Assembly (NCBI GenBank): GCA_016199625.1
Contig: JACQGI010000039.1
Coordinates: 2,379-66,378 of the forward strand
Reading direction: 5' to 3'
Source: Acidobacteriota bacterium
GTDB lineage: Bacteria; Acidobacteriota; Vicinamibacteria; Fen-336
DNA: 64,000 nucleotides
Part shown: in pieces, positions 40,081 through 55,916 of the stretch
Layout of the letters: the number at the start of each line of letters is the position of its first letter
How positions within the stretch are numbered: position 1 is the stretch's first letter
Translations under genes and position numbers: made by a program
Notes under the pieces: model-generated
Told to the model about the DNA's origin: nothing
The model's database searches: none
Seen by the model: the letters and a program-made list of their open reading frames with translations, nothing else

Positions 40081-42198
40081 GTGGTTCCCGCCGGCGAGAC
40101 CGCCGCCCGCCCGCGCAAGCGCATCGGCAAGTATCTGGTGACCGGGCGCATCGGCCGCGGCGGGATGGGGATGGTCTACCGGGCCTGGGACGAGGTCCTC
40201 GAGCGCGAAGTGGCCGTCAAGACCCTCACCGTCGAGGGGACCCTCGACGAGGAGAGCCGCAAGCGATTCGAGATCGAGGCGAAGGCCGCTGCCCGGCTGC
40301 AGCACCCCAACATCCTCACGGTGTTCGAGCTGGGAGAGGACCGCGGCGTCCCCTTCATCGCCATGGAGCTCCTGCCCGGCATCGACCTCGAGGCGCTCCT
40401 GCGGTCGGCGGAGGAGATCCTGCTCCAGGAGAGGCTGGACGTGGTCGTGCAGGTCTGCCGCGGCCTCGCCTACGCCCACGAGCATCGGATCGTCCACCGC
40501 GACATCAAGCCCTCGAACATCCGGATCCTGGACGACGGCAGCGTCAAGATCATGGACTTCGGTATCGCCAAGCTCCAGGGGACCGGCGTCACCAAGGCCG
40601 GGATGATGGTGGGGACGGTCCACTACATGAGCCCGGAGCAGATCCGCGGCAAGAGCCTGGACGGACGCAGCGACGTCTTCTCCGTCGGAGTGATCCTCTA
40701 CGAGATCCTCGCAGGCCGGCGCCCCTTCTCGGGGGAGACGGCTACGGAAGTGCTCTACCGGATCGTCCATGAGCCTGCGGCGCCGCTTCCGCTGCCCGAG
40801 GATCTCGGGTCCGCCGGACCGCGGCTCCAGGAGATCGTGGACCGCGCCCTGGCCAAGGAGCCCGACCAGCGCTTCTCGAGCGCGACGGAGATGGCCGACG
40901 CCGTCGCAGGGGTCCTCCTTGCTCACCGGCGCCCCGGCGCCGACCCGGCGCAGGAGCAGGAGGCCGTCGCCGCCGCACGGCGGCTCCTCAAGGAGGGCCG
41001 TGCCGAGGAGAGCCTGCGGCACCTCCGCGAGCTGGCCGAGAGGCGCCCGGACTCCCTGGACCTGCGCCGCGCGCTCCGCGCGGCCACCCGCGAGACCCAG
41101 CGGCGCCAACGGGCCGCCGAGCCCGCCGCGGAGGAGTTCCCGGAGCTCGATGCGACTTTCCAGGCGCCCCCGACGCAGATGAGCCCCGAAACGGCGACGG
41201 TGCTGCAGCCGACGGAGCTGGCGGCGCGCCACTCGGCGGTCGGCCCGCCGCGGATCGGAGTGTGGATCGCCGTCGGTGTGGGTGCGGCACTCGTCGTGGG
41301 GGGGGGCCTCGCGGTCCTGCTGCGTGGGGGTCCGGGGGAGGACGTCGTGGGGGGGCCCGTGAAGGTTGCCGTCCGCTCTCGGCCGCCGGGTGCCGTGGTG
41401 CTGCTGGACGGCAAGGAGACCGGCGTCGTCACCGACGGCGAGGTGTTGCTCCCCGAGCCTCGGCGCGGCCTCGTCCGTCTGACGTTCCGCAAGGACGGGT
41501 TCCGGGAGGAGACGCGGACCATCGCGCTGCCGCTGCCCGACGGCGAGGTCGTGTCCGTCACCCTCGGCCCTGCGCCCGCCGCCGTCGCAGTGGTCACCGA
41601 TCCGCCCGGCGCCAGCGTCACCCTCGACGGCCAGCGCGTCCCAGGCACGACGCCCCTCGACCTCCGCGTCGACCCCTCGGCAGAGCATCGCCTGACCCTC
41701 GCCCTCGACGGCCACGCGTCCCAGGAGGTGCGCCTCGCGGCCGGCCGCGTCCCGCCCCAGGTCCGCGTGGGGCTGTCGCCGTCGGGTCCCATGGGCTCGG
41801 TCACCGTCACTGCGAGCTACCCTGTGGACGTCGTCTGGCGCGGGCGGATTCTCGCGAGGGGCCAGACTGCGCCGCGCGTGAGCGTCCCCCAAGGGCGCCA
41901 AGTGCTGACCCTGCTCTCTCCCGGCGTGTTCCTCCGTGCCAACGTCACGGTGGAAGTCCGCCGCGAGACGGCCGTGGCGGCCCCTCCCCTGGGCACGCTG
42001 AACATCCGCGCGACGCCCGACAACTGCGAGGTGTTCGTCGACGGCGCCTCGGTGGGCTACCTCCCGATCCTCGACAGGCCCGTCAGCGCCGGTCGTCACG
42101 CCGTGCTCTTCCGTTGGCCCGACGGCGGCCGCAGCGAGGACGCCGTCGAGGTGGTGGCGGGACGCCCCGCCTTCGTCGTGGGGCGGAGGGACCCATGA
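40081..42198 (+). CDS. Hanks-type Ser/Thr protein kinase with a TM segment and two C-terminal PEGA domains.
   Basis: GRGGMGMVYRA...VAVK, HRDIKPSNI and DFGIAK motifs. A TM segment (IAVGVGAALVVGGGLAVLL). Two RSRPPGAVV.LDG / TDPPGASVTLDG PEGA-like beta domains. Confidence 0.85.
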   Translation: MVPAGETAARPRKRIGKYLVTGRIGRGGMGMVYRAWDEVLEREVAVKTLTVEGTLDEESRKRFEIEAKAAARLQHPNILTVFELGEDRGVPFIAMELLPGIDLEALLRSAEEILLQERLDVVVQVCRGLAYAHEHRIVHRDIKPSNIRILDDGSVKIMDFGIAKLQGTGVTKAGMMVGTVHYMSPEQIRGKSLDGRSDVFSVGVILYEILAGRRPFSGETATEVLYRIVHEPAAPLPLPEDLGSAGPRLQEIVDRALAKEPDQRFSSATEMADAVAGVLLAHRRPGADPAQEQEAVAAARRLLKEGRAEESLRHLRELAERRPDSLDLRRALRAATRETQRRQRAAEPAAEEFPELDATFQAPPTQMSPETATVLQPTELAARHSAVGPPRIGVWIAVGVGAALVVGGGLAVLLRGGPGEDVVGGPVKVAVRSRPPGAVVLLDGKETGVVTDGEVLLPEPRRGLVRLTFRKDGFREETRTIALPLPDGEVVSVTLGPAPAAVAVVTDPPGASVTLDGQRVPGTTPLDLRVDPSAEHRLTLALDGHASQEVRLAAGRVPPQVRVGLSPSGPMGSVTVTASYPVDVVWRGRILARGQTAPRVSVPQGRQVLTLLSPGVFLRANVTVEVRRETAVAAPPLGTLNIRATPDNCEVFVDGASVGYLPILDRPVSAGRHAVLFRWPDGGRSEDAVEVVAGRPAFVVGRRDP

Positions 42199-43679
42199 GG
42201 CGGGCCGCGGCGTACGCCGCCTGTGCGATGCTGCTCCTCGCGGGATCCGCTTCGGCCCAGTCCTCCCCCGATGAGCAGGCCCGGAGGCTCCTCGAGGACG
42301 GGAAGCAATACTTTGGCAAGGGGCAATACAAGCAGGCCCTCGACAACTTCAACACCATCGCGACGGGCTTCTCGGCCACCGATTCCGTGGACGACGCGCT
42401 CCTCGAGATCGGCCGATATCACCTCGAGGTGGACGGCGACGTGGAGAAGGCCCGCGCCTCATTCGAGCAGGTCGCCCAGCGGTACCCCCAGAGCGACGGC
42501 GCCCCCGGCGCCTACTACTACCTCGGCTGGCTCACCATGACGCGCGCGGCCGGTGCGGCGGAGCTCGACGACGCTCTGGCGCAATTCGACCGGATCCGGA
42601 CCCTCTACCCGCGGAGCGACTGGGTCGCCCGGGCCTTCTACGCCTCGGGCCTCGTCCACCGCAAGGCGGGCCGCTTTGCCGAAGCGGTGGAGGCGGAGCG
42701 CCGCGTGGCCCTCGAGTACCCCACGAGCGAGGCCGCTCCCGCGGCCCAGTTCCAGATCGGACACTGCCTCGCCCTCATGGGCGAGCACGGCGTCGCCATG
42801 GAGGAGTACCAACGCGTCCGCAACCGGTTCCCCGAGAGCGAGTGGGCCGCCCGGGCCCTCGACCGCACCACGACGCTCTACCGGCTCTACGCAACCGCGA
42901 GCCCGACCTTCGCCCCCGACCCGTCCGTGTCCTTCGGGGCCGGGGACGTGCTGCGGGACGTCCGCGCGATCCTCATGACGCCCGATCGCACGCTCTGGGT
43001 GGCCTCCGACAAGACCCGCAGCGTGGTTCCCTTCGACGCCGAGGGCAAGATCGGCTCGAGCATCCCCGCCGAGAACATCCGGGCGCTGTCGTTCTCCGCC
43101 AAGGGGGAGCTCCTCGTCGCGGCGAGGTCCGCCGTCCGCATCGGCCCGAAGGACATCAAGTCCTTCGCCGTTCCGACGGACAAGCCGGGCGTGCCGGAGC
43201 CCCTGGAGGACATCGGGGCCGCCGTCATCACCGCCGGCGGCAACATGCTGATCGCCGACGGGAAGAGGAACCGCGTCTACCGGTACGACCGGCAGTTCCA
43301 GTTCCTGGGCACCTGGCCCGACGGGAAGGAGCGCGAGGTGCGACGCCTCGTCCTCGACGGTGAAGGGGCCGTCGTCCTCCTCGACGCCAAGGACAAGACC
43401 GTGCAGGTCTACGACGAGTCGGGGCGGCTCCTGCGCTCGTTGGGGGGCAGGGGTACGGCGTCCGAGTTCCGCAAGCCCGTGGACGTGGCCGTGGACGCCG
43501 CCCGCAACCTGTACGTCGCCGAGGAGGAGGGCCCGGTGCGGATCTTTTCCCCGGACGGAAGGCTCCTCGGCTCCCTGGCCAGCGACGAGGTGCGGCGGCC
43601 CCGGGCCCTGACCCTGGATCCCTCGGGGGCCGTGCTCGTGTACGACGACAAGGCCCAGAGGGTGATCCGCTTCAAGTGA
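42195..43679 (+). CDS. Secreted TPR (YbgF-like) - NHL/beta-propeller repeat protein.
   Basis: Signal peptide MRRAAAYAACAMLLLAGSASA. N-terminal TPRs. C-terminal repeats of the type NLYVAEEEG.VRIFSPDGRLLGSL. ATGA overlap with the kinase stop. Confidence 0.65.
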   Translation: MRRAAAYAACAMLLLAGSASAQSSPDEQARRLLEDGKQYFGKGQYKQALDNFNTIATGFSATDSVDDALLEIGRYHLEVDGDVEKARASFEQVAQRYPQSDGAPGAYYYLGWLTMTRAAGAAELDDALAQFDRIRTLYPRSDWVARAFYASGLVHRKAGRFAEAVEAERRVALEYPTSEAAPAAQFQIGHCLALMGEHGVAMEEYQRVRNRFPESEWAARALDRTTTLYRLYATASPTFAPDPSVSFGAGDVLRDVRAILMTPDRTLWVASDKTRSVVPFDAEGKIGSSIPAENIRALSFSAKGELLVAARSAVRIGPKDIKSFAVPTDKPGVPEPLEDIGAAVITAGGNMLIADGKRNRVYRYDRQFQFLGTWPDGKEREVRRLVLDGEGAVVLLDAKDKTVQVYDESGRLLRSLGGRGTASEFRKPVDVAVDAARNLYVAEEEGPVRIFSPDGRLLGSLASDEVRRPRALTLDPSGAVLVYDDKAQRVIRFK

Positions 43680-43686
43680 GCATGCG

Positions 43687-45858
43687 ATGAAGGTGTGGCT
43701 CCTCGGCCTGGCCCTCCTCGCGGCACCGCCCGCCGCCGCGCAGCAGACGACGCCGCCCGCGGACCCCGCCCAGAAGGAGCTGCAGGCCGTCCAGGATCTC
43801 CTCGGCAGGGCCACGGCCGACTTCGAAGGGGCACAGCAGAGCCGTTCGATCGTCCTCCTCGATGAGATCATCACGCGGCTCGAGACCCTGCGGAGGATGG
43901 AGAGCCTGGCGCCCCGCGGGCGCGAGATGCTGGCCCAGGCCTACGAGATGCGCGGCCGGGCGTACTTCAACATCGGTTTGCAGGAGAAGGCCTCGGACAG
44001 CTTCCGCTCCCTGGTCCAGCTCCAGCCCCAGTACGCGCTCTCGAAGGAGAAGGTCTCCCCGAAGATCGTGGAGTTCTACGCGTCGGTGAAGAAGGGCCTG
44101 GTGGGCTACCTCGCCGTCTCCTCGAAGCCCGCCGGCGCCAGGGTCACGTTGAACGGCGAGTTCCTGAGCGTCACCGACTTCTTTCCCCTGGAGGTCCTCG
44201 CGGGGGACTACGCCGTCGAGGTCTCCCGTGAGGGCTACCGGAGCGAGGCGCGCACGGTCAGCATCGCGCCCCGGGCCACGGAGGCTCTCGACGTACCCCT
44301 CACGCGGGTCTCGGCGAGCTACTTCTTCCTCACCGAGCCCGCCGGCGTCGAGGTCTGGGTGGACGGGGAGCTGAAGACGACCACCTCGGGAGCACTCGCT
44401 CCGGACCAGGCCGAGGAGGTGCGCGGCAGGGGCGTCGACCCGGCGCGGTCGTCGACCTGGACCGAAGTGGCGAACCTCTCCCTGGGAACGCACATGGTCG
44501 AGCTGCGGAAGAAGTGCCACGAGCCGGTCAAGCTCACACTGGACGCCGCGGAGCCCAGGGACTACAACGCCGAGCCGATGCGGATGGAGGAGTCGCTGGC
44601 CTCGCTCCGGCTCGAGTCGGATCCGCCCGGAGCGCGGATCCTCATCGACGGCGAGTCCATGGGGCTGACGCCGAAAGAGCTCGACAACCTGTGCTCGGGC
44701 CGGCACCGGATCGAGGTGAAGCACGCCTCGGGCAAGTTCATCCAGGACGTGGTTCTGGCCAAGGACGAGGCCCTCTCGCTCAAGTGCCCGATCCGTCCGA
44801 GCCTCGCATTCCTCGGCGTGGTGGCCGAGAGCGCCGGTGCGGAGCGCGTCGCTGCCGACGCGGAGGAGAAGCTCCTCCAGAACCTGTCGCGGATCACGAC
44901 GCTGAACTTCGTCCCGGCGCCCAGGGAGACGGTCGACCGCATCCTCGAGGGAGAGAAGCTCACGCGCGGTGGGCTCATCCCCGGCGCGGGGACGGACCCC
45001 GACCTGGTCCGGAAGGTCACCGAGAAGCTGGCCTCGACCCTCGAGGTCCAGGGCTTCCTGATCGCGCTGCTCCCCGAAGAGCGGCTCCAGCGGACGGCGA
45101 TCCTGCATCTCCTGGCGGCGGGGAACACGGTGACGGATCGCTGGGACGTCACTTTCGGCGAGGCCGCGTCGTACCTTCGCTTCCTCTCCGCAGTGGACCA
45201 GAGGGTGCCGCTCTACCGCCCCTGGACCGGTCTCGTGACGGTGGACACGCACCTCCACGACGGCGTCCCCGTGCTGCGGGCGGCGCCCGGGAGCCCGGCC
45301 GCCGTTGCGGGGATACAGCCCGGCGAGGTCCTCTACGCCGCCGACGGCCGGCCCGTCAAGCGCACGGCCGACCTGCTGGCCATCGTGGACGCCAAGCGGC
45401 CGAAGGAAAAGGTCGCGCTCCACCTCAGGGGAGCTTCGGGAGATCGCGCCGTGGAGGTCACCCTCGCGCAGACCCCCCAGGAGATCCCCCTGAACGACCC
45501 GACGCTGCTCTACAACAAGATCATGGTGGACCTGCGCCAGGAGGTCGAGGGATACCCCGGCACGGAGTCGGCGGCCTTCGCGAGGCTCAACCTCGCCCTG
45601 TGCGCCATGCACTTCGGCGACTATGCCGCCGCCCACGAACATCTGCTCAAGGCCCGGGCTGAGCTGCCCAACCGGCCCGGCCTCTCGCAGGGCACGGCCC
45701 TGTACTACCTGGGCGTGGCCTTCGAGCGCCTCGGGGACAAGTACCGCAAGGAGGCCGGAGACGCCTATCGCGCCGCGGCGGGCTTCAAGGACGCCACGCT
45801 CTTCGACAACGACGGGCCGGCCGTGGCGCCTCTCGCCGCCCGCCGGGTGGGGTCGTAG
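43687..45858 (+). CDS. Secreted multidomain protein: TPR - PEGA x3 - PDZ - C-terminal TPR.
   Basis: Signal peptide MKVWLLGLALLAAPPAAA. PEGA-like segments (SSKPAGARVTLNG, TEPAGVEVWVDG, ESDPPGARILIDG). A PDZ domain (GIQPGEVLYAADGRPV). Confidence 0.65.
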   Translation: MKVWLLGLALLAAPPAAAQQTTPPADPAQKELQAVQDLLGRATADFEGAQQSRSIVLLDEIITRLETLRRMESLAPRGREMLAQAYEMRGRAYFNIGLQEKASDSFRSLVQLQPQYALSKEKVSPKIVEFYASVKKGLVGYLAVSSKPAGARVTLNGEFLSVTDFFPLEVLAGDYAVEVSREGYRSEARTVSIAPRATEALDVPLTRVSASYFFLTEPAGVEVWVDGELKTTTSGALAPDQAEEVRGRGVDPARSSTWTEVANLSLGTHMVELRKKCHEPVKLTLDAAEPRDYNAEPMRMEESLASLRLESDPPGARILIDGESMGLTPKELDNLCSGRHRIEVKHASGKFIQDVVLAKDEALSLKCPIRPSLAFLGVVAESAGAERVAADAEEKLLQNLSRITTLNFVPAPRETVDRILEGEKLTRGGLIPGAGTDPDLVRKVTEKLASTLEVQGFLIALLPEERLQRTAILHLLAAGNTVTDRWDVTFGEAASYLRFLSAVDQRVPLYRPWTGLVTVDTHLHDGVPVLRAAPGSPAAVAGIQPGEVLYAADGRPVKRTADLLAIVDAKRPKEKVALHLRGASGDRAVEVTLAQTPQEIPLNDPTLLYNKIMVDLRQEVEGYPGTESAAFARLNLALCAMHFGDYAAAHEHLLKARAELPNRPGLSQGTALYYLGVAFERLGDKYRKEAGDAYRAAAGFKDATLFDNDGPAVAPLAARRVGS

Positions 45859-45860
45859 GA

Positions 45861-46184
45861 GTGCCCGCCGCGCGCCTGGTCTGGGAGCGAGGCGACGGCT
45901 CCCGGGTCGAGTTCCCCCTGACCGCCGACGTGCTGGTCGTGGGGCGCGACGAGGAGGCGGACATCCGCGTCGACGAACCCCTCGTCTCCCGGAACCACGC
46001 GCGCCTCGAGCGCCGGGGCGAGGCCTGGGTGGTCCTCGACCTGGGCTCGACCAACTACACCCGCGTGAACGGCGAGGTGGTCTCCGAGCGCGCGCTGCGA
46101 CACGGGGACGAGGTGCGCTTCGCCCGCGCGCGGTGCACCTTCCTCGCCGCAGCGGGCGCCGATCCCGTCGCCGGAGGGGTGTAG
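45861..46184 (+). CDS. Small stand-alone FHA-domain protein.
   Basis: VVGRDEEADIRVDEPLVSRNHARLERRGEAWVVLDLGSTNYTRVNG. GTG start 3 nt after the previous stop. Confidence 0.7.
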   Translation: MPAARLVWERGDGSRVEFPLTADVLVVGRDEEADIRVDEPLVSRNHARLERRGEAWVVLDLGSTNYTRVNGEVVSERALRHGDEVRFARARCTFLAAAGADPVAGGV

Positions 46185-46185
46185 C

Positions 46186-47769
46186 TCAGGGTCCCGCTGC
46201 GCGGGGCTGCGGGCGGACGTCGTAGAGGACGTAGTCGCCGCGATCGTGGGCCACGGGGTAAGGAAGCTCCAGGCGTGGCGTGCGGGCGCGGTCGACGAGC
46301 ACGTGGGTGACGCGCCAGCGCTGCAGGATGGCCCCCCGCGTCGCGAGATCCGCGCGCGGGTCCAGGAAGCGATCGACGTCCAGCACGCGCTGCCAGCCAC
46401 CCGCCGCCACCAGGAAGAGGTCGGGGTGCTGGGGTGCGACGACCTTGCGCCCGGCGAGTCCCGCGACGCCGTTGGCCGTGTCGCGGTCCGCGAGGACCAC
46501 GGCATCCTCCGGGGTGAGGCGTGCCACGAAGGCCAGGTCGGGCCTCTCCTGGCCGAGGAGCCAGCGCACACGTGCCCCCATCGAGAGGGCGCCGGCGGCG
46601 AGGAGTCCCACGGCCAGAGCACGCCCCCACCGGCCCCGCGCCCACGCGAGGTCGAGGAGGACCGCGGCGCCGATCTGCAGCGGGAGCGCCGCGAAGAAGA
46701 CGAAGCGCTCCCGCAGCGGGAGCACCGGGCAGAGGGCCAGCGCGACGTCCACGGCGAACCAGGCGACGAGGAAGGCGCGTCCGGACCCCGATACCAGCAC
46801 CGCTCCCACCAGGCCGAAGACGGCCGGCCCCAGGACGGCCACGAGCGGGACCACGAACGCCGCGGGATCGAGGGCTAGGGCGGCGCTGCTGACGAGGGCG
46901 GCCCCGCCTGCCGGCGGCACGCTCACGAGGCCTCCGGGGGCGGTCTGGCGCAGGCCGGGGTGGGCCGCGGCCTCGAGCAGGCCCAGGACAGGGTAATACG
47001 GCCACAGCGCCGCGAGGGCCAGGCCGGCCACGGGCAACCCGACGAGGAAGGCGGTCCGCGGCGCGCTCGCGGTGCGCCGGGCGAGGCCGACCCCCCCGAG
47101 TGTGACCAGGGCCGCCGCCAGGGCGAGAGCCGTCAAGGGGTGCGTGGCCACGAGGGCCGCCGTGAGCGCCACGGCGGCCGCGAGGGCGTGCGGTCGCGGC
47201 AGGCCCCGCTCGCCTCCGGGCGGAGGGAGGACGAGGCGCAGCACGAGGAGGAACAGCACCAGGCCGGCCTGGTGCGGGTAGAAGAAGTTCTGGGCGTCGG
47301 CGAGGGACGTCGTCCCCGGCCATCGCCAGGACGGCCACGAGATCGTGGCTCCGGGCCACGGTCCCCAGAGCAGCACCGCCGCGAGCAGGGACCATTGAGC
47401 CGCTCCCTCGCCGGCGAGTCGCGCCGTCGTGGCGCGCAGCGCGAGGGCGAACGCCAGGAGGTTGGCGAGGCCCGCAGCGTAGAGCAGATGGAGGGGATCC
47501 GTCCCCGTGAGGCGCGCCATGGCCCCCAGGAGGACGAGGTAGGGGCCGTAGTGACCCTGGGGGAGCCCCTCGTGCACGACGAGGTTGTGTTTCGGAGGGA
47601 ACTCGCCTTTGGCCAGCTCGCGAACCGCGGCCATGTGGTGCATGGCGTCGGTTCCGAGCCCGGCGCGCAACGGTGCATCGGCGTAGTACAGGGCCGCCAG
47701 GGAGACGCCGGCGAGGGCGACGCAAGCGGGGTAGAGCCCGTCGGTTCGCGAGGGACGGCCCGGCTTCAC
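46186..47769 (-). CDS. Polytopic integral membrane protein with a C-terminal soluble domain (possible ArnT/PMT-like glycosyltransferase; function uncertain).
   Basis: More than 10 hydrophobic helices. GTG start at 47769 overlaps the upstream EAL gene stop (GTGA). The family assignment is a guess. Confidence 0.5.
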   Translation of the reverse strand: MKPGRPSRTDGLYPACVALAGVSLAALYYADAPLRAGLGTDAMHHMAAVRELAKGEFPPKHNLVVHEGLPQGHYGPYLVLLGAMARLTGTDPLHLLYAAGLANLLAFALALRATTARLAGEGAAQWSLLAAVLLWGPWPGATISWPSWRWPGTTSLADAQNFFYPHQAGLVLFLLVLRLVLPPPGGERGLPRPHALAAAVALTAALVATHPLTALALAAALVTLGGVGLARRTASAPRTAFLVGLPVAGLALAALWPYYPVLGLLEAAAHPGLRQTAPGGLVSVPPAGGAALVSSAALALDPAAFVVPLVAVLGPAVFGLVGAVLVSGSGRAFLVAWFAVDVALALCPVLPLRERFVFFAALPLQIGAAVLLDLAWARGRWGRALAVGLLAAGALSMGARVRWLLGQERPDLAFVARLTPEDAVVLADRDTANGVAGLAGRKVVAPQHPDLFLVAAGGWQRVLDVDRFLDPRADLATRGAILQRWRVTHVLVDRARTPRLELPYPVAHDRGDYVLYDVRPQPRAAGP

Positions 47770-48995
47770 TCGGGGCCGGGGTCGGGCCGCGCCAGATAGA
47801 AGCCCTGGCCATAGTCGACCCCCATGGACTGCAGCGCCCGGCACTCCTCCTCGGTCTGGATCCCCTCGGCGATGACCGTGGCGCCGATGCCGTGGCCGAG
47901 GGAGATGATGGCCTTGACCATCTCCCGGTTGACCACGCTCGAGTGCACGTCCCGGATGAGCGAGGTGTCGATCTTGAGGAAATGGGGCTTGAGCCGCGCG
48001 ATGGCCTCGAGGCCGGAGTAACCCGCGCCCACGTCGTCGACGGCGAAGGACATCCCGAGGTCGGTGAAGTAGGCCATGGTCTCGCGGAAGAGGCCGTAGT
48101 TCTCGATGACGAGCTTCTCGGTGATCTCGATGACGATCCTGTCGGGGGAGACCTGGGCCCGGTCGAGGAACTCGATGAGGGGCCGGCCCCGGAACTGCGG
48201 ATCGCGGATCGTGGCCGGCAGCGTGTTCACGAAGAGTCGCGCGTTCGAAGGCACCCGTCCCGACGAGAGCAGGGCTCGAGCGCGGCAGAGCCGGTCCAGC
48301 TCCACCATGAGGCCGTGCTCTTCGGCGGCTCCGAAGAGCCCATCGGCCGTCTCGAGGCCCGTGCCGCGCGCCCCACGGGACAGGGCCTCGAAGCCCAGCA
48401 CGGTGCGGTCCTTCATGAGGAGGATGGGCTGGTAAGCCGTCACCACACGCTCCCGCACGATGAGGTCCTGCAGCCGCTCCCGGACCTGGATCTCCTCGGT
48501 CTTCCGGTGATGGCCGGCCTGGTCCAGTGCGCTCCGGAAGGCCTGGCTCACGATGCGGTCCGTCCCGACCAGGGGGTTGTAGAGGGCGATGGCGTAGCCG
48601 AGGTCGATCCGCGGCGGCGTCTTGAGGTAGGGGAACGCCGTGCGCGCCACGTTCGGCGCGAGGGACGTCAGCAGGCGCGTCCAGACGGCCCTGAGGTCGG
48701 TGAGGGACAGCGAGAGGTTCTTCCGGCGCTTGCGCTCGAGGAAGATCAGGAGCCGGAGCCCACGGGGCTCGTCGAGGGCGAGGATGTCTCCGCCGCGGAA
48801 GTCCTTGCCGCGCTGTTCCCGGAGCAGCTTGAAGAGGCGCTGGCGCACCTCCTCGTAGGCCTCGGACCCGTACGTGGACTCTACTATTCCGAGGGACGAC
48901 GCGTCCATGATGACGAGCCCGAGGTTGCCCCGCTCGGCGAGCTGCGCCTGGAGCTCCGGGACGCGCTCATGGTAGGTGGGGACCGGCTCGGTCAT
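47766..48995 (-). CDS. EAL-domain c-di-GMP phosphodiesterase with a degenerate GGDEF-like N-domain (paralog B).
   Basis: YQPIL, EAL(SR), NARLFVN, EITE, DDVGAGYSGL and KIDTSLIR motifs. ATG at 48995 overlaps the stop of paralog A (ATGA). Confidence 0.8.
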   Translation of the reverse strand: MTEPVPTYHERVPELQAQLAERGNLGLVIMDASSLGIVESTYGSEAYEEVRQRLFKLLREQRGKDFRGGDILALDEPRGLRLLIFLERKRRKNLSLSLTDLRAVWTRLLTSLAPNVARTAFPYLKTPPRIDLGYAIALYNPLVGTDRIVSQAFRSALDQAGHHRKTEEIQVRERLQDLIVRERVVTAYQPILLMKDRTVLGFEALSRGARGTGLETADGLFGAAEEHGLMVELDRLCRARALLSSGRVPSNARLFVNTLPATIRDPQFRGRPLIEFLDRAQVSPDRIVIEITEKLVIENYGLFRETMAYFTDLGMSFAVDDVGAGYSGLEAIARLKPHFLKIDTSLIRDVHSSVVNREMVKAIISLGHGIGATVIAEGIQTEEECRALQSMGVDYGQGFYLARPDPGPE

Positions 48996-50326
48996 GCGGC
49001 CCCGTCCACGGGCACGAGCACCGGCGGGGCGAGGTACCGCCCCTGCCCCAGCTTCACTCCCATGTCGCGGAGGGTCCTGAACTCGGACTCGGCCTCGATC
49101 CCCTCGGCGATGACCTCTGCGCCGATCTTCTCCGAGAGCTCCACGAGGGTCTCGAGGAGGCTGCGCTTGATGAGGCTGCGATCGATGTTCCGCACGAGCG
49201 AGATGTCGAACTTGAGGTAGTCGGGCTCGATCTCGACCACCGCCTGCAGGCTCGAATAACCGGCCCCCATGTCGTCGATGGCGATGCCGAAGCCCTCGGC
49301 CTTGAGGGTGCGCAGGACCTCCTGGTACGCCTGGCGCTCCCCGACGGCCACGCGTTCGGTGATCTCGAGGATCACGTCGGCGTGGTCGAGCCCCTGGCGC
49401 TCGACCTCCTCGATGAACCCCGGGCCGGCGACCTCGGGGTCCCGCAAAGCCCCCGCAGAGGTGTTCAGGAAGAGTTTGTTGCCCCTCCGGAGGTGCCGGC
49501 GAGCCGAGGCGAGGGCCCGGCTCCGGCAGAGGCGCTCGAAGTCCACCAGCCGGCCGGTGCGCTCCGCGAGGACGAACAGGCCCTCGGCGTCCTCGAAGGC
49601 GCTCCCCGCGGGGCCGCGGGTGAACACCTCGTGGCCCAGGACCGTGAGGTTCCGGAGGTCGAGGATGGGCTGGTACAGGGTGACCACCTGTCGGCTCCGG
49701 ATCAGGTCGTCCAGGCTCTGGGCCCGCCGGTCCTCCTCGCGGCTCCGATCCTTGAGGCACATGAACATGGCCTCGTCCAGCGCGCGGTGCACCGATCGCT
49801 CCGCGCGGAGCATCGGGTCGCGGTAGAGGAGAGCGTGGCCCTCGTGGAAGAGCAGCGGCACCGGGATGCCGTCGGGGAGGTGGCGGGGCAGCAGCGTGTC
49901 GAGGCGCTCGCGGAGCCGCGCGGCGAGGGCGTCCACGCCGGGGCGGTCCAGGGCGGCGGGGCCGGGGCCTCCGGCGCAGAGCAGGAACTTGTCGCCCCGC
50001 ACCGCGAGGACGGCGATGATGTCACGGGGGCCGAGCAGGCCTTCGGGGCGCAGGGCACCCAGGGCCTGCGAGAAGCCCCGCACGACCTCGTCGTAGGCGT
50101 GCCAGCCGTGTAGGGACTCGATGGGCGCGTTGGCCCCGAGGTCGAGGTACACGAGGCCGAGGGTGCCCCGCTCCTCGACCAGGCGCCGGACGTCGTCGAG
50201 GACGGCGGCCAGGGTCGGAAGCTCCGTGTTGGTGTCGAAGACGTGGTTCTTGAAGCGCAGCCACTCGCCGCGGAGCCTGAAGTATTCCTGCTCCTCCGGG
50301 CCGGTGCGCGCCATGGCCATGCTCAC
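48992..50326 (-). CDS. EAL-domain c-di-GMP phosphodiesterase with a degenerate GGDEF-like N-domain (paralog A).
   Basis: YQPIL, EVF(TRG), NKLFLNTS, EITE, DDMGAGYSSL and KFDISLVR motifs. The start overlaps the receiver gene stop. Confidence 0.8.
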   Translation of the reverse strand: MSMAMARTGPEEQEYFRLRGEWLRFKNHVFDTNTELPTLAAVLDDVRRLVEERGTLGLVYLDLGANAPIESLHGWHAYDEVVRGFSQALGALRPEGLLGPRDIIAVLAVRGDKFLLCAGGPGPAALDRPGVDALAARLRERLDTLLPRHLPDGIPVPLLFHEGHALLYRDPMLRAERSVHRALDEAMFMCLKDRSREEDRRAQSLDDLIRSRQVVTLYQPILDLRNLTVLGHEVFTRGPAGSAFEDAEGLFVLAERTGRLVDFERLCRSRALASARRHLRRGNKLFLNTSAGALRDPEVAGPGFIEEVERQGLDHADVILEITERVAVGERQAYQEVLRTLKAEGFGIAIDDMGAGYSSLQAVVEIEPDYLKFDISLVRNIDRSLIKRSLLETLVELSEKIGAEVIAEGIEAESEFRTLRDMGVKLGQGRYLAPPVLVPVDGAA

Positions 50327-50718
50327 GAGGCCGTCTTGCCGCCCGCGTCCATCTGGGCGAAGATCGCCTCGATCTTGCCGAGCAGCTCCTGGAGGGAGAA
50401 CGGCTTGCAGATGTAGTCGATGGCTCCTTCCTGGAGCCCCTGGACGCGGTCCTTGGCCTCGGTGCGGGCCGAGAGCATCGCCACGGGGATGTGGGCGGTC
50501 TCCTCGTCCACGCGGAGGAGCTTCAGGACCTCCCAGCCGTCCATCTGGGGCATCATGATGTCCAGGAGCACGAGGTCCGGTCTCTCGAGCTGCGCCCGCG
50601 TGAGCGCCTCGTGACCCCCGGAGGCCGTGACGACCTCGTAGCCCTTCTCGCGCAGCACCAGCTCCAGGAAGTGGAGGATGTCGTCTTCGTCGTCAACGAC
50701 CAGGATCTTCTTCTTCAT
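50323..50718 (-). CDS. Single-domain response regulator (CheY-like receiver, 131 aa).
   Basis: MKKKILVVDDEDDIL...LVLLDIMMPQMDG...KPF. ATG at 50718 overlaps the kinase stop. Confidence 0.85.
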   Translation of the reverse strand: MKKKILVVDDEDDILHFLELVLREKGYEVVTASGGHEALTRAQLERPDLVLLDIMMPQMDGWEVLKLLRVDEETAHIPVAMLSARTEAKDRVQGLQEGAIDYICKPFSLQELLGKIEAIFAQMDAGGKTAS

Positions 50719-53057
50719 AGTGCCGCCGGCCCCGTTCCCTCCGCAGTTGCGCCGATGTGGCGTCGGACCTCGGTGATGAGGGCTCGGACCTCGAAGGGCT
50801 TGCTCATGTACTTCCGGGCCCCGAGCGCCAGCCCCTTCTGCGCGTCCACGTCGTCGCCGCGCGCCGTCAGGACCACCACGGGGATCCCCGCGGTGGCCTC
50901 GTTGCGGCCCATGGCCTCCAGAACCTCGAACCCCGACAGCTCCGGCATCATGATGTCCAGAAGGATGAGGTCGGGACGCTGCCGTGCCATGACGTCCAGG
51001 GCCTGCCGGCCGTCGTAGGCCACGAGGACCCGGAACCCCTCGGTGCGCAGCGTGTCCCGGATGAAGTCCACGGTGTCGGTCTCGTCGTCCACCACGAGGA
51101 CCGTCGGCTCGCGGCCGGCGGAGCCGTTCAAGAGACGCTTCACCCTCGAGACGATCGAGAGGCGGTCCACCGGCTTCATGAGGCACTCCGCTGCGCCGAG
51201 GGAGAGGGCTTTCGGACTGTCGTTGGCGATGGAGACCACGAGGACGGGGATGCCGCGGGTGCCCGGATCCTCCTTCAGCGAGCGGAGGAGGTCGAGGCCG
51301 CTGCGGTCGGGGAGGAGCAGGTCGAGGAGGATGACGTCGGGGTGCCGGCGGGACGCGATCTCGGCCCCCTCGCCGGCCGTCATGGCCGTGAGGACCGAAA
51401 AGCCCTCCTCCTCGAGGTAGGTCCTCATCACCCGGAGGAAATCGGGCTCGTCGTCCACGACGAGGACGACGCCCTGGGGTCCCTTGCCGTGGCTGCGCTC
51501 TTCGCGGCTCACGGCCTGGCCCTTCTCCTGGACGGGCAGGGGGAAGTGGAAAGCTGTCCCGCGTCCCTCCTCGCTCTCCACGGCGATGGCGCTCCCGTGG
51601 GCGTCGAGGATGCTCTTGACGATCGCGAGGCCCAGCCCGACGCCGCCGAAACGCCTCGTGGTCGAGCCGTCCACCTGGTGGAAACGGTTGAAGATCTTCC
51701 CGATCTGGTCGCGGGGGATCCCGATACCCGTGTCCACCACGCTGATCGCGGCGGAAGCCCGCCCGGTGGCCACGACTCGCTGCGCCGAGACAGTGATGTG
51801 GCCCCCTTCCGGTGTGAACTTGAGGGCGTTGATGACCAGGTTCTCGATGACCTGGGAGATCTTCTCCCGATCCGCGATGACCGGGGGCAAGTCGGCCGCG
51901 ATCTGCGACCGGAACGTCAAGCCCTTCTTCTCCAGCTCGGACCTCAGCGTCGTGAGGATCTGGTCCACGAGTTGGGCGAGGGAGAAGGGCTGGATGTTGA
52001 GGACGATGCGCCCCACGTCCATCCGCGAGAAGTCGAGGAGCGCGTTGATGGACTTCGAGAGGCGCTCGAGGTTCCTCTGCACGACCACGAGGCCCTTCTC
52101 CTGCTTATCGGTGATGACGCCGAGCTTGCGGTCCAGGATGTAGTCCGTGTACCCCTTGATGGCGGTGAGGGGCGTGCGCAGCTCGTGGCTGACGTTGGCG
52201 AGGAGGTCGGACTTCATCCGGTCGAGCTCCTTCAGTTCCTCGTTGACCATGGCCAGCTTCTTGTTGGATTCCTCGAGCTGCTCGACGTTCTCTTTGAGCC
52301 GCTCGGTCATGTAGTTGAAGGCCTCGGCGAGGATCTGCAGCTCGTCTCCAGAGCGGATGGAGAGCCGTCGGTCGAAGTGGCCCTCGGCGATGGACTGGGC
52401 GCCCCGGGTGAGCTCCTCGAGGGGCCGCGTGATGCGCGTGGCCAGAGCCACCGCCACCAGCACCGAGGCCAGGATCGAGAGGAGGGTCAGGCCCCCGGTG
52501 GCGTAGATCAGCTTCTCGATGTTGGGGCGGAGGTTCTTGTAGGAGACGTGGTACGAGACCGAGAGCCGGTGGCGTCCCCAATCCTCGATGTAGGGGGCGA
52601 TGATCTCGAGGGTCTCGGTCCCGGCCGGGTCCCGTCCCCGGATCGTCGTGGGCTCGAGGCGCTTGATGGCCTCCAGGCGCTCGGCGTCCTCCACCCACCG
52701 CTCGGCTGCGGCCCCCTCGCCGTGGGGGCTGGCCTCGTCGAGCTCCGTGGAGTCGAAGAGGATCTTCCCGTTCACGTTGATGATGAGGATCCGCTCCACG
52801 TCCTCTTCGAGACGGAGATGGTCCCGCATGAGCTCCCGGAACTTGTAGAAGCCCGAGGCGTAGTAGGTCTCGTAGCCGACGCAGATGGGGGTGCGGGTGA
52901 GCAGCGCGAAGAGGTAGGCCCGGTTCTCGATGTCCCGGCGCAGCTCCTTCCGCTTGGTGAGGATCAGGTAGACGGCGTTGGCCACCAGGATGACGACGAT
53001 TACCGACGCGATGGCGAGCGCCGTGCGCGTCTTGAGGCTGTTGAGCCTGAGGGCCAT
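50715..53057 (-). CDS. Hybrid sensor histidine kinase (sensor - HAMP - HisKA - HATPase - REC - REC).
   Basis: H-box LANVSHELRTPLTAIKGY. N, G1 and G2 boxes. Two receiver domains (VVLVVDDEPDF...LLDLLLPD and VLVVDDETDT...LLDIMMPE). ATG at 53057 with an N-terminal TM segment. Confidence 0.85.
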   Translation of the reverse strand: MALRLNSLKTRTALAIASVIVVILVANAVYLILTKRKELRRDIENRAYLFALLTRTPICVGYETYYASGFYKFRELMRDHLRLEEDVERILIINVNGKILFDSTELDEASPHGEGAAAERWVEDAERLEAIKRLEPTTIRGRDPAGTETLEIIAPYIEDWGRHRLSVSYHVSYKNLRPNIEKLIYATGGLTLLSILASVLVAVALATRITRPLEELTRGAQSIAEGHFDRRLSIRSGDELQILAEAFNYMTERLKENVEQLEESNKKLAMVNEELKELDRMKSDLLANVSHELRTPLTAIKGYTDYILDRKLGVITDKQEKGLVVVQRNLERLSKSINALLDFSRMDVGRIVLNIQPFSLAQLVDQILTTLRSELEKKGLTFRSQIAADLPPVIADREKISQVIENLVINALKFTPEGGHITVSAQRVVATGRASAAISVVDTGIGIPRDQIGKIFNRFHQVDGSTTRRFGGVGLGLAIVKSILDAHGSAIAVESEEGRGTAFHFPLPVQEKGQAVSREERSHGKGPQGVVLVVDDEPDFLRVMRTYLEEEGFSVLTAMTAGEGAEIASRRHPDVILLDLLLPDRSGLDLLRSLKEDPGTRGIPVLVVSIANDSPKALSLGAAECLMKPVDRLSIVSRVKRLLNGSAGREPTVLVVDDETDTVDFIRDTLRTEGFRVLVAYDGRQALDVMARQRPDLILLDIMMPELSGFEVLEAMGRNEATAGIPVVVLTARGDDVDAQKGLALGARKYMSKPFEVRALITEVRRHIGATAEGTGPAAL

Positions 53058-53205
53058 GGCCAGCCTTGAACCACCGGCGCGCGCGCCCCCCCAATTCTCC
53101 GGATCCGAAGGCGGGTGGCCGAGGCGACTCGGATGATAGCCGGTTCCCCGGTGCCGCACAAACCCCCGGCACCGGCTAGAATACCAGCCCCGCGGAGGTT
53201 CGCCC

Positions 53206-54225
53206 TTGCCCATCCTGGCCCGGTTCCTCAAGGACCGGGGCATCGTCACCGAGAGGCAGCTCGAGGAGGCGATCCAGCACCAGGTGCTCTACGGGGGCCG
53301 CCTGGGGACCAGCCTCTACGAGCTGGGCTTCATCACCGAAGAGCGCCTGCAGGAAGCCCTGGGACGCGTCCACGGCGTGCCCACGACCGCCGTGGACCTG
53401 CGGGAGGTGCAGCAGGAGGCCGTGGCCCTGGTCCCCAAGGTGCTGGCGGCCAAGCACAAGGTCTTCCCATACCGCATCCGCGGCAAGACCCTCGACCTGC
53501 TGATGGTGGACCCGCAGGACCACGCCACCGTCGCCAAGGTGGGCTACTCCATCGGCTACATCGTCCGGCCGCTGGTCGTCCCCGAGTTTCGGATGATCCA
53601 GCTCCTCAAGGACTACTACGGCGTGGACGAGCGCTGGCGGTTCAGCGACACCCACCGGCCCGCCGCGCCAGCCGCGGCGCCCCTCGAGGCGTTGGCGCCG
53701 GAGAGTGCAGCGGCACGGATCGAATCCGCCACGACCCGCGACGAGGTCGTGGAGGCGCTGCTGGCCCTCTGCGCCCGGACGTTCCGGCGGGTCGTCTTTT
53801 TCATCGTGCGTGAGCCCTGGGTCATCGGCTGGAGCGGCGCCGGCGAGGGCATGGACCGGGCCCTGGCGTCGAGCCTCCGCATCCCCCTGGACCAGCCGTC
53901 GGTCTTCCAGACGGTCACGCGGGACAAGACCGTGTTCGTGGGACGCTTCGGCCCCGAGGAGGAGAACCAGCGCTTCCTGAAGGCCGTGGGCAAGCGGCCC
54001 ACGACCAACGCCGCGCTCTTCCCCCTCGCCGTGAAGGGGCGGGTGGTGAATCTGGTCTACGGCGACGCCGGCGCCACGGGGAACGTCAAGGCCAACCTCG
54101 GGGACCTCATGGTCGACGTGCAGAAGGTCCCCCGGGCGTATCTGAGGATCATCCGCCGGAGGATCGCGGAGACCCGCAAGGCCGCAGGCGTCGCCCCCGA
54201 AGGTGCGGAAGACGGCGAAGACTAG
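53206..54225 (+). CDS. T2SSE_N (GspE/PilB N-terminal)-domain protein with a C-terminal DUF4388-like region.
   Basis: ARFLKDRGIVTERQLEEAIQHQ...GGRLGTSLYELGFITEERLQEAL matches the GSPII_E_N pattern. TTG start preceded by GGAGG. Confidence 0.55.
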   Translation: MPILARFLKDRGIVTERQLEEAIQHQVLYGGRLGTSLYELGFITEERLQEALGRVHGVPTTAVDLREVQQEAVALVPKVLAAKHKVFPYRIRGKTLDLLMVDPQDHATVAKVGYSIGYIVRPLVVPEFRMIQLLKDYYGVDERWRFSDTHRPAAPAAAPLEALAPESAAARIESATTRDEVVEALLALCARTFRRVVFFIVREPWVIGWSGAGEGMDRALASSLRIPLDQPSVFQTVTRDKTVFVGRFGPEEENQRFLKAVGKRPTTNAALFPLAVKGRVVNLVYGDAGATGNVKANLGDLMVDVQKVPRAYLRIIRRRIAETRKAAGVAPEGAEDGED

Positions 54226-54524
54226 GGTGTTCCGCCCCGGAACCACCGGGCGAGGGCGTACAGGACGAACACGAGACCCACGGTCAGGAGGCTCGACCAG
54301 GCCAGCCAGGCCGTGAGCCGGCGCTGCTGGGTCTCGTCCCAGGGTACCTCGACACGGCGTCGCGTCTCGGGCCGACCCGCGATCTCCACCTCGTAGGCCG
54401 CCGCGCCGCCCCGTCCCTCCAGCGGCCGGCTGCGCACGATCGCGGCGCACGCGGGGCACCGCGTGAGGGCGACCTCGAGGCTGCGATCCAGCACGGCGCC
54501 ACAGCCCGGGCAGGCGAACGGCAC
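54222..54524 (-). CDS. Small zinc-ribbon protein with a C-terminal TM helix (hypothetical).
   Basis: CPGCGAVLDRSLEVALTRCPACAAIV ribbon and the LTAWLAWSSLLTVGLVFVLYALARWF helix. Third-position GC is very high. GTG start. It is the tail of the long antisense track ORF 54222..55727. Confidence 0.35.
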   Translation of the reverse strand: MPFACPGCGAVLDRSLEVALTRCPACAAIVRSRPLEGRGGAAAYEVEIAGRPETRRRVEVPWDETQQRRLTAWLAWSSLLTVGLVFVLYALARWFRGGTP

Positions 54525-54569
54525 CCCCGGAGTATAGTGCCGGCGTGGCGTGGTAGGATCCGGCTCCGT

Positions 54570-55916
54570 ATGCGAGCCCACGCTTGGTTGTCCGCCACGC
54601 TGCTGCTGTCCGCCCCTGCGGCCGGTGGCCCCATCCTCGAGGAGCGCGACCGGGCGCTCTCGGCGCGCGGAGGAAGCCGGCACGTCTTCGTGGTCATGCT
54701 GGACGGGACGCGGCCCGATGCCTTGCGCCGCGCCCAGGCACCGGCCCTCCAGGGCCTGGCCGCCGCCGGCGTGACCTACCTGCAGGCCCGCACGCAGTAT
54801 CCCTCCCAGACGCGCGTCTCCTTCGTGACGCTGCCCACGGGGTCCTACCCCGACGGCCACGGCATCGTCGGCGGCGACGAGTACAAGGACGAGTCGTGGA
54901 ACACACAGTCCCTGGGGGCGACCGGAGACCCCGTCCCCGCCCAAGCCCTCGTCCGTCGGCCCACGATGTTCGAGGAGCTGACCGCCGCGGGCCTCACCTC
55001 CCTCTACGCAGCCATGAAGGGCTACGAGCTCGTGGGGGCGCGCGGCGCGACGTGGACCATCAACGGCAAGAACACGCTGGATGCCACGGCCTACGCGACA
55101 CGCTACCAGGCCGAGGTGGCCGGGAGCGCCGATCTCGCCCTGGGCTACAAGCTGCTCCTCGGCCGTCAGCTCCTGGACCAGACCCTCGAGATCGTCCGTC
55201 GCGAGCGCCCGAGCCTGGTCGTCGTCAACCTCGGGTCGGGGGACTACGCCGCCCACTCCTTCGGCCCCGACGACCCGCGCTACCTGCGCGCCCTCGAGTA
55301 CGGCGACGCCCTCCTGGGCGACCTCGTGAAGGCCGTGGAGGCACTCGGGATCCGGGACCGCTCGGTCTTCGTGATCTCCGCCGACCACGGCTTCACGCAG
55401 GTGGACGGCCGGCGGGTGGTAGCCCCGAAGTCCGATCACGACGGCCATCGTCTCGAGGTCCTCGCCGCACGGGGCATCGAGCACTTCGTCACCAACGCCG
55501 GCGGTGCCGCCATGGGGGTCTACGTCCGGGACCGCGCCCGCCTCGTCGAGGCGGCGAGCGCCCTGCGCGGCGAGACGTGGTGCGCCTCTCTCTACTGCGA
55601 GGACCCCAAGGCGGGCTGCGACCGCAGCCTGCGCTCGCTCCGCGCCTACTTCCCGGGGCGCTCCCCCGACCTCATGGTGGACCTCGACGACGACTACGCC
55701 CTCAACTACGCCCAGGCCGGCCAGCACGGCAGCCTGCGCGACGAGGACATGAACATCCCCCTCGTCCTCTCCGGAGCCGGCGTGGCCCAGGGGAAGGTCC
55801 TTGGCAAGGCGAGCCTCGTGGACGTCGCGCCGACCGTGCTGCGCCTCCTCGGGCTCACGCCGAAGCTCCTGCGGGCCGACGGGCGGGTCCTCGAGGAGGC
55901 TCTCGTGGCGCCGTGA
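54570..55916 (+). CDS. Secreted alkaline-phosphatase-superfamily enzyme (nucleotide pyrophosphatase/phosphodiesterase, ENPP-like).
   Basis: Signal peptide MRAHAWLSATLLLSAPAAG. HVFVVMLDGTRPDAL with a metal/Thr nucleophile region. SADHGF. Confidence 0.7.
   Translation: MRAHAWLSATLLLSAPAAGGPILEERDRALSARGGSRHVFVVMLDGTRPDALRRAQAPALQGLAAAGVTYLQARTQYPSQTRVSFVTLPTGSYPDGHGIVGGDEYKDESWNTQSLGATGDPVPAQALVRRPTMFEELTAAGLTSLYAAMKGYELVGARGATWTINGKNTLDATAYATRYQAEVAGSADLALGYKLLLGRQLLDQTLEIVRRERPSLVVVNLGSGDYAAHSFGPDDPRYLRALEYGDALLGDLVKAVEALGIRDRSVFVISADHGFTQVDGRRVVAPKSDHDGHRLEVLAARGIEHFVTNAGGAAMGVYVRDRARLVEAASALRGETWCASLYCEDPKAGCDRSLRSLRAYFPGRSPDLMVDLDDDYALNYAQAGQHGSLRDEDMNIPLVLSGAGVAQGKVLGKASLVDVAPTVLRLLGLTPKLLRADGRVLEEALVAP

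Follow-up and report, generated by a model that had tools for sequence, protein, structure and literature searches.

In the RocS1/RocR and PvrS/PvrR systems of Pseudomonas aeruginosa and the VieS/VieA system of Vibrio cholerae, a hybrid or sensor histidine kinase signals through a receiver to an EAL phosphodiesterase of c-di-GMP (cyclic diguanosine monophosphate) whose catalytic residues are intact. A GGDEF-like domain in tandem with an EAL domain is found in PdeA (CC3396) of Caulobacter and in ProE, RbdA, and RmcA of P. aeruginosa. The same domain order occurs in LapD and FimX, which have lost the EAL catalytic residues. In the NfrB/DgcJ system of Escherichia coli, a c-di-GMP enzyme is combined with an MshEN-type module and a membrane glycosyltransferase, suggesting local signaling to glycan synthesis. 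Here we describe a related locus in a 64,000-nucleotide (nt) stretch of DNA, called the window, from the metagenome-assembled genome of an Acidobacteriota bacterium of the Vicinamibacteria (contig JACQGI010000039.1, positions 2,379 to 66,378). A hybrid sensor histidine kinase (HK), a response regulator (RR), two EAL proteins (EAL-A and EAL-B), and a polytopic membrane protein (MEM) are encoded there at 46186-53057 on the minus strand. The five genes form a real, conserved, tightly packed operon of soil Vicinamibacteria-type Acidobacteria. The operon could be a c-di-GMP-degrading module that is under two-component control and is coupled to an enzyme of envelope glycosylation, an overall scheme to which we give even chances; the domain assignments of the operon proteins are made with high confidence.

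The locus departs from each of the described systems. Unlike in RocR, PvrR, and VieA, the receiver is a separate protein of 131 amino acids (aa) that is not fused to the EAL domain, and a degenerate GGDEF domain stands in place of the receiver domain (REC). There are also two EAL paralogs rather than one, the kinase carries two receivers with no HPt domain, and a GT-C protein is included in the operon. RocR was among the EAL sequence matches, and NCBIfam gave a sub-threshold match to PvrR. Compared to PdeA, the GGDEF signature is wholly lost (RGLRF or RxDKF instead of GEDEF). LapD and FimX were both among the fold matches, but the catalytic residues are kept here and neither the transmembrane (TM)/HAMP module of LapD nor the REC/PAS module of FimX is present. 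In NfrB, a GT2 enzyme, the MshEN domain is fused to the transferase and the partner is a cyclase, whereas this locus has a GT-C fold, a separate and partly degenerate MshEN-like protein, and phosphodiesterases. The GT-C enzymes STT3/PglB/AglB, ArnT, AftA, and DPY19 share with MEM a transmembrane core and a C-terminal soluble domain, but MEM is only 11-17% identical to them and reaches no Pfam GT-C family at threshold. A literature search returned no study linking a GT-C enzyme with c-di-GMP and no study of c-di-GMP signaling in Vicinamibacteria. The domain families are familiar, so a specialist would not be greatly surprised by the locus; their arrangement is unstudied. What is new is the separation of receiver and EAL domain onto different proteins, the retention of an ancient EAL pair, the conserved overlap with a GT-C-like protein outside any Pfam family, and the MshEN-like neighbor.

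The window is ~71% GC, and plain lists of open reading frames (ORFs) are, therefore, full of spurious frames; third-position GC (GC3) profiles support five consecutive genes on the minus strand. In the direction of transcription, the operon consists of HK (780 aa; 50715-53057; GC3 frame and Pfam), RR (a single-domain CheY-like regulator; 50323-50718; Pfam Response_reg), EAL-A (444 aa with a GTG start; 48992-50326; Pfam EAL), EAL-B (409 aa; 47766-48995; Pfam EAL and an AlphaFold model), and MEM (527 aa with a GTG start; 46186-47769; GT-C fold by AlphaFold and Foldseek). In the public annotation, MEM (527 aa) and EAL-B (409 aa) begin at these positions too, and MEM is identical to the NCBI "hypothetical protein" HY317_05680. 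A preliminary description of this DNA gave MEM 528 aa, a count that included the stop codon; its coordinates and its description of the locus were otherwise right. As read from the sequence, all four junctions are stop/start overlaps of exactly 4 nt: ATGA between HK and RR (50715-50718), GTGA between RR and EAL-A (50323-50326), ATGA between EAL-A and EAL-B (48992-48995), and GTGA between the stop of EAL-B and the start of MEM (47766-47769). The GC3 profiles and the sequence thus agree with the earlier account of a five-gene chain with ATGA or GTGA at every junction. A scan for sigma-70 promoters and intrinsic terminators gave nothing above shuffled sequence. Rfam detected no riboswitch in the window, the c-di-GMP riboswitch included, and its sole match was a tRNA.

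The operon was then compared in nine independent loci from other acidobacterial metagenome-assembled genomes (MAGs) and metagenomes: L001 (identical to L007), L003, L004 (identical to L008), L009, L010, L012, L015, L016, and L017. L015 is truncated, and protein identities to the window were measured in six loci only. The order HK-RR-EAL-EAL-MEM recurs in these Vicinamibacteria-type loci with the exception of L012, which is without EAL-A. Overlaps of 4 nt were found at all four junctions in L001, L003, L009, L016, and L017 and at the junctions present in L015; one or two junctions are short gaps in L004 and L010. The EAL-B/MEM overlap was retained in every locus examined. Identities to the window proteins were 85-92% for RR, 57-73% for HK, 66-69% for EAL-A, 68-74% for EAL-B, and 46-51% for MEM, so that RR stands out as the most conserved of the five proteins (the others lie at 46-74%). 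This level of RR conservation fits a protein with several partners. The identities of 46-74% indicate that the loci are diverged lineages and not strains. Since the gene order is kept across nine loci despite the divergence of MEM, the operon is more than a product of chance, and the same order with mostly the same overlaps in relatives supports the earlier view of the genes as one tightly packed unit.

Both EAL proteins were expected from the preliminary description to have intact catalytic motifs, and an alignment to active EAL enzymes found the catalytic residues conserved in both. Pfam EAL matched EAL-A at residues 203-435 (5.8e-50) and EAL-B (1.6e-52). The catalytic columns were aligned with 6 EAL-A orthologs and 127 EAL-B sequences, using EAL-B numbering and the residue roles given for the EAL active site in PMC7290235. 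Both proteins have, in order, EVF/EAL followed by R, N, EITE, DDxGAGYS, KxD, EGxE/EGxQ, and QG. The first motif is E-V-F-T-R in EAL-A and E203-A-L-S-R207 in EAL-B; its E and R are present in all six EAL-A sequences, and in EAL-B in 126/127 and 127/127 sequences, respectively. The metal-binding residues N257, E290, D320/D321, and E377 are invariant in both families and align with those of BlrP1, TBD1265, and VcEAL. Loop 6 reads DDMGAGYSS in EAL-A and DDVGAGYSG in EAL-B, with G323, G325, Y326, S327, and the stabilizing E293 invariant; the residue after DD is M or V, not F. K341 and D343 of KxD and Q397 and G398 of QG are also invariant in both families. Neither protein has lost loop 6 or the catalytic Glu, the losses that would have spoken against intact enzymes. 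The sole systematic difference between the two families concerns the second Glu of EGxE, which EAL-A keeps and EAL-B replaces by Gln or His. In ProE, mutation of the residue at this position (E509) to Ala reduced activity to <55% of wild type, and the authors' homology model places E509 in contact with c-di-GMP and within the dimer interface (PMC7290235). The best matches among solved structures were active enzymes, namely the stand-alone EAL of V. cholerae (6ifq), BlrP1, TBD1265, and MucR. Both EAL proteins are, from their conserved residues, likely to be active c-di-GMP phosphodiesterases.

EAL-A and EAL-B are 35% identical over their full length; the value is 25.6% for the N-terminal domains and 42.3% for the EAL domains. 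The paralogy implied by the term tandem duplication in the preliminary description is therefore upheld by this identity, but the duplication is ancient and is not universal, as L012 has EAL-B only. A recent tandem duplication was rejected because the paralogs are only 35% identical.

The N-terminal domains of the EAL proteins are predicted to be degenerate, noncatalytic GGDEF folds. Neither Pfam nor NCBIfam gave a match for the N-terminal domain of EAL-A or EAL-B, with Pfam negative even at E<10 and for GGDEF itself. EAL-A begins with a conserved helix, YFRLRAEWLRFKNHVF, followed by the degenerate GGDEF-like domain. At the GGDEF position, EAL-A has R-[SGA]-D-K-F, with no RxxD, and EAL-B has R-G-[LH]-x-F. 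The AlphaFold model of EAL-B (predicted local distance difference test [pLDDT] score of 89.1) has the secondary-structure order of the GGDEF beta-alpha-alpha-beta-beta-alpha-beta topology. In a Foldseek search of the PDB with this model, the top 16 matches were all full-length GGDEF-EAL tandems covering ~406-440 columns (E 2e-27 to 1e-19), including DosP, MorA, LapD, and, as the best matches, RmcA/PA0575 and RbdA/PA0861; EAL-only chains ranked lower, at 3e-19 or weaker. PDB sequences were also searched with a profile of 13 N-terminal domains. The best match was the DosC GGDEF domain, which was weak (E=0.09) and extended over the whole domain with RGLRF under GGDEF; the next were two 4wx chains, which we take to be SadC, and then the diguanylate cyclase 4urg/4urs. 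A database search with the EAL-B N-terminal domain alone returned 14 matches, mostly partial or short members of the same family. The full-length tandem fold matches of the EAL-B model and the weak profile match agree with the earlier proposal of an N-terminal degenerate GGDEF-like domain in both proteins. EAL-B has R67-x-x-D70 in 127/127 sequences at the position of the RxxD inhibitory site (I-site) of DosC; in EAL-A, the Arg is gone. In an alignment by eye, the Asn and Asp that bind guanine in PleD presumably correspond to Glu and Glu/Asp here (E39 and E48). GTP activation of the PdeA type appears doubtful for these domains. Diguanylate cyclase activity of EAL-A and EAL-B was excluded because the GGDEF signature is lost.

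Another possible explanation is that EAL-A, EAL-B, or both serve as c-di-GMP-sensing receptors or triggers in the manner of LapD, FimX, or PdeR instead of as bulk phosphodiesterases, with MEM, HK, or the MshEN-like protein as the contact partner. The degenerate GGDEF-EAL architecture is that of LapD and FimX, both recovered as fold matches, and EAL-B has the invariant RxxD at the I-site position. In addition, EAL-B is the paralog that directly overlaps MEM, is never lost, and is missing the second Glu of EGxE, the c-di-GMP contact at the dimer interface of the ProE homology model. However, the metal-binding, substrate-binding, and loop 6 residues are invariant in both families, which is the pattern of active enzymes, and a trigger enzyme would still hydrolyze its ligand, so that this explanation overlaps with the reading of the EAL proteins as phosphodiesterases. 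We consider a receptor or trigger role unlikely.

The phosphotransfer residues of the kinase and the receiver are intact: the acidic pocket, phospho-acceptor Asp, T/S, and K are present in all three receivers. HK is composed of TM1, an extracytoplasmic region of ~150 aa, TM2, HAMP, HisKA (H291), HATPase_c, REC1 (D579), and REC2 (D701). Pfam supported HAMP (5.6e-16), HisKA (2.7e-16), HATPase_c (2.5e-28), and Response_reg in two stretches (1.3e-52). The extracytoplasmic region (residues ~35-185, between the two predicted TM segments) had no family match. HK carries an H-box (SH291ELRTP) together with the ATP-binding boxes G1 and G2 (DTGIGI and GGVGLGL). REC1 has D535/536, D579, S609, and K628, and REC2 has D657/658, D701, T731, and K753. 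The HK orthologs share the same start residue. In RR, Response_reg (7.3e-31) is the sole domain, and D9/D10, D53, S83, and K105 are intact. No HPt domain was found in a Pfam scan of HK and 23 proteins of the 30947-63992 region.

MEM, the last protein of the operon, is predicted to be a GT-C-fold, glycosyltransferase-like protein of an undescribed family. MEM matched no Pfam or NCBIfam family, even at E<10, and a profile of its family had no match among PDB sequences, leaving fold comparison as the only informative approach. An AlphaFold model built from 41 homologs had a pLDDT of 87.2 and a predicted template modeling (pTM) score of 0.89. Foldseek against the PDB gave 25 matches at E<=1e-3, and all were GT-C proteins: STT3, PglB, AglB, AftA, DPY19, and ArnT. 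These matches had E values of 1e-6 to 2e-4, template modeling scores of ~0.5, a probability of 1.00, and 11-17% identity. The C-terminal alpha/beta domain (~410-527) separately matched the C-terminal globular domain of AglB; hydropathy and a positive-inside count did not settle on which side of the membrane this domain lies. Some members of the MEM family had weak, sub-threshold matches to DUF6541, DUF6798, PTPS_related, and DUF2142, which we take to be GT-C-type membrane families. The finding of a GT-C fold is in line with the earlier suggestion of a glycosyltransferase-like membrane protein. In the model, the first external loop (residues 30-75) has helices at 32-35 and 41-53. Its invariant residues are R35, R50, E51 (41/41), P58, P59, and the H73-Y-G-P76 block, and H45 is present in 40/41 sequences; E51 and H45 also occur in three archaeal-type homologs. 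H210 is invariant in the family as well.

The MEM family is large. A profile search, run exhaustively, collected 1069 cluster representatives (clusters at 50% identity) at E<=1e-3, 529 at 1e-10, and 44 at 1e-30, and only a handful of the 1069 clusters belong to the acidobacterial subfamily. Ten distant representatives were searched against Pfam, and none reached the threshold of any GT-C family; one had a sub-threshold PTPS_related match and one an N-terminal MacB_PCD domain. Distant homologs (25-28% identity) were found on contigs of ANME-1 and Methanosarcinales. The neighbors of these archaeal genes encode 3-4 GT4 glycosyltransferases, a DUF2206 membrane protein, a polysaccharide pyruvyl transferase, and a radical SAM enzyme. 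This archaeal context supports a role for the MEM family in glycan assembly and is independent of the c-di-GMP context. A contig region assigned to the Deltaproteobacteria bin EthSRB1 (L013:6073-12814) was 82% identical in nucleotides over 5.4 kb to a Methanosarcinales contig (L014:1-8790). The two share GT4, DUF2206, and GT-C-like genes and are both ~30% GC, which could be explained either by mis-binning or by gene transfer between syntrophic partners.

Upstream of HK, a gene for an MshEN-like protein (339 aa with a TTG start; 53206-54225, plus strand; Pfam MshEN 1.2e-11 at residues 56-142) is transcribed divergently from the operon. This gene, which is absent from the preliminary description, is the best candidate for the c-di-GMP receptor of the locus. 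The protein is conserved at 64-71% identity, and the gene stands next to the operon in divergent orientation both in the window and in 6/9 relatives (L001, L003, L004, L012, L016, and L017). It is displaced by ~1.5 kb in L010, was not found in L009, and would lie beyond the contig end in L015. MshEN domains are established c-di-GMP receptors with two tandem 24-residue motifs, RLGxx(L/V/I)(L/V/I)xxG(L/V/I)(L/V/I)xxxxLxxxLxxQ, separated by a 5-residue spacer (PMC5013675), and one such domain is fused to a glycosyltransferase, NfrB (PMC8669469). The motif spacing and the 5-residue linker VLYGG of the MshEN-like protein fit the consensus. Motif 1, ILARFLKDRGIVTERQLEEAIQHQ, keeps G-I-V, L, I, and Q, with R replaced by I/L and G mostly by A. 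Motif 2, RLGTSLYELGFITEERLQEALGRV, keeps R, L, G, G-F-I, L, and L and ends in V/F/L instead of Q. Because both motifs deviate from the consensus, binding of c-di-GMP by this protein is uncertain, and from its sequence it is plausible.

The intergenic region between HK and the MshEN-like gene is 148 bp long in the window (53058-53205) and 64-112 bp in relatives. TTCTAG is the sole invariant block across seven aligned intergenic regions. On the plus strand (53177-53182) it reads TAGAAT, resembling a -10 box, and precedes the TTG start of the MshEN-like gene by 23 nt; GGAGG is found at 53194-53198. A perfect 9-bp inverted repeat (CCGGTGCCG, 10 nt, CGGCACCGG) lies just upstream of the TAGAAT box at 53148-53175 and falls in an insertion that the relatives do not have.

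These features suggest how the module could work. An envelope or external cue would set autophosphorylation of HK at H291. The phosphoryl group would most likely be transferred straight to D53 of the free RR, because there is no HPt domain in the locus, and the HK receivers with D579 and D701 could act as competing sinks or autoregulatory modules. RR would then bind and switch the EAL enzymes through their degenerate GGDEF domains, lowering c-di-GMP. EAL-A and EAL-B may form homodimers or heterodimers through these domains, and EAL-B may itself sense c-di-GMP through the RxxD at the I-site position. The change in c-di-GMP could be read locally by the MshEN-like protein, through contact of EAL-B with the co-translated GT-C enzyme, or both. 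The output would be altered transfer of a polyprenyl-phosphate-linked sugar to an envelope acceptor, which might be a protein, lipid, or glycan. We regard direct control of MEM by c-di-GMP or by EAL-B as quite improbable. A more specific proposal, held just as tentatively, is that EAL-B is a trigger phosphodiesterase docked on MEM, its activity set by RR, with the MshEN-like protein as a second reader; MEM would then be the first GT-C glycosyltransferase to come under direct, local control by c-di-GMP. EAL-B would in that case be made in stoichiometric amounts with MEM through the conserved stop/start overlap.

Several observations weigh against this scheme. Overlaps of 4 nt also occur at 10/41 (24%) of the other same-strand junctions of the window, as determined from our own gene calls. 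By this count, a run of four has a probability of ~0.24^4 = 0.0035 per position, which is mildly unusual, and the overlaps alone are weak evidence because they are frequent in this genome. Therefore, of the earlier statement that the operon is fully translationally coupled, the overlaps stand and the coupling was only deduced from them; judged from the sequence, overlaps that are this common in the genome do not prove obligatory translational coupling. L012 (MAG_453_bin-14) has HK, RR, EAL-B, and MEM and no EAL-A, so the EAL pair is not essential. D41 of MEM, part of a DAxHH motif, occurs in the archaeal homologs and in most sequences but not in a subgroup whose loop is shorter. No Asp of the first external loop is thus invariant, and the catalytic competence of MEM is therefore uncertain. 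No sugar-activation or polysaccharide-export genes are conserved beside the acidobacterial operon, and no GGDEF cyclase motif was found in a six-frame translation of the whole window. The deviations of both MshEN motifs from the consensus also belong to this list. The preliminary description had read the locus as a c-di-GMP-controlled envelope or exopolysaccharide circuit. With no conserved polysaccharide genes beside the operon, its link to polysaccharide comes solely through the distant archaeal homologs of MEM, and we retain the circuit as a hypothesis. In L012, ~190 bp of noncoding DNA lies where EAL-A would sit (L012:8560-8769).

Some of these points would also fit a different role for MEM. 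Instead of being the output, MEM could be a co-sensor, anchor, or scaffold for HK or the EAL proteins, or a housekeeping GT-C enzyme that shares the transcript. MEM is the least conserved member of the operon (46-51%), and its distant homologs occur without c-di-GMP genes. The lack of a universally conserved Asp in the first external loop and of conserved donor-sugar genes nearby in Acidobacteria could be explained in the same way. However, the GT-C fold match is confident and extends across the whole protein, and R35, H45, R50, E51, and H210 are conserved as expected of an active site. The EAL-B overlap is kept in every locus, and the distant homologs lie within polysaccharide clusters. A role for MEM other than output therefore seems improbable to us, to the same degree as a receptor role of the EAL proteins. 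Lastly, an incidental arrangement in a compact high-GC genome has hardly any probability left: the 4-nt overlaps at 24% of other same-strand junctions and the uninformative promoter and terminator scans would allow it, but it is effectively refuted by the five-gene order with MshEN-like and FHA/PEGA-PDZ flanks in nine loci, in which MEM is ~50% identical. A chance arrangement was ruled out by the same synteny in nine loci.

On the other side of the operon, a gene for an FHA-domain protein (107 aa; 45861-46184, plus strand; Pfam FHA 4.1e-19) is convergent to MEM and present in all relatives. The two genes are 1 nt apart from stop to stop in the window (46182-46188). In relatives, the FHA and MEM ends overlap by 4-49 nt (L001:11533-11536, L015:6668-6671, and L017:10518-10566). 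Such stop-to-stop ends leave no room for a terminator, and the 3' ends of both transcripts must therefore overlap as antisense RNA. The FHA gene follows a cluster on the plus strand (36758-45858) with Pfam matches for RodZ-like, HEAT, DnaJ-TPR, PP2C, Ser/Thr kinase-PEGA, TPR/NHL, and TPR-PEGA-PDZ proteins. The cluster is found in the same order in L001, L003, L004, and L015, the relatives whose fetched DNA reaches that far. We treat it as genomic context of the operon. With the FHA gene included (36758-46184), its logic is like that of the actinobacterial FhaA/FhaB/PstP/PknA/PknB cell-envelope module. Just upstream of the cluster is a gene for an MscS-type mechanosensitive channel fused to a cyclic-nucleotide-binding domain (34380-35852, plus strand).

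Other genes of the window were also noted. A 603-aa protein (19144-20955, plus strand) has the HD-GYP signature (HDVGKIGI ... HHENVDGSGYPDGL) of a predicted c-di-GMP phosphodiesterase of a second, unrelated kind. An 840-aa protein (57453-59975, plus strand), ~4 kb from the operon, matches GT87, which is of the GT-C type (1.2e-09), and a type I phosphodiesterase/nucleotide pyrophosphatase gene is located at 54537-55916. The GT87 and pyrophosphatase genes are not at this position in relatives, where MFS_3 comes directly after the MshEN-like gene. Between the MshEN-like and MFS_3 genes, the relatives have a conserved and very basic ORF of 37-48 aa (MIERxKEIRRRRKRK...AAIAAAxKKPAKK), seen at L001:3565-3681, L003:3497-3643, L016:2472-2585, and L017:2538-2654. 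No counterpart of this ORF was found in the window at 54226-54540, the equivalent position.

The Vicinamibacteria, a class of Acidobacteria abundant in soil, have few cultured members. In the module described here, a sensor kinase that faces the envelope is connected to c-di-GMP breakdown and, probably, to a step of glycosylation. If the proposed wiring is false, the locus would be a correctly annotated but ordinary two-component/EAL operon. If it is true, the operon would provide a defined input-to-output path for the control of surface glycans or biofilm in Vicinamibacteria and would exemplify the action in trans of a receiver on EAL enzymes. It would also give the first functional handle on a GT-C-like family that has no Pfam entry and comprises ~1000 clusters at 50% identity. 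Should control of the GT-C enzyme also hold, this family would be given a function, and the control of glycans by c-di-GMP would extend from the cytoplasmic-face GT2/GT4 synthases, such as BcsA, PgaCD, PelF/PelD, and NfrB, to periplasmic-face, polyprenyl-phosphate-dependent glycosylation.

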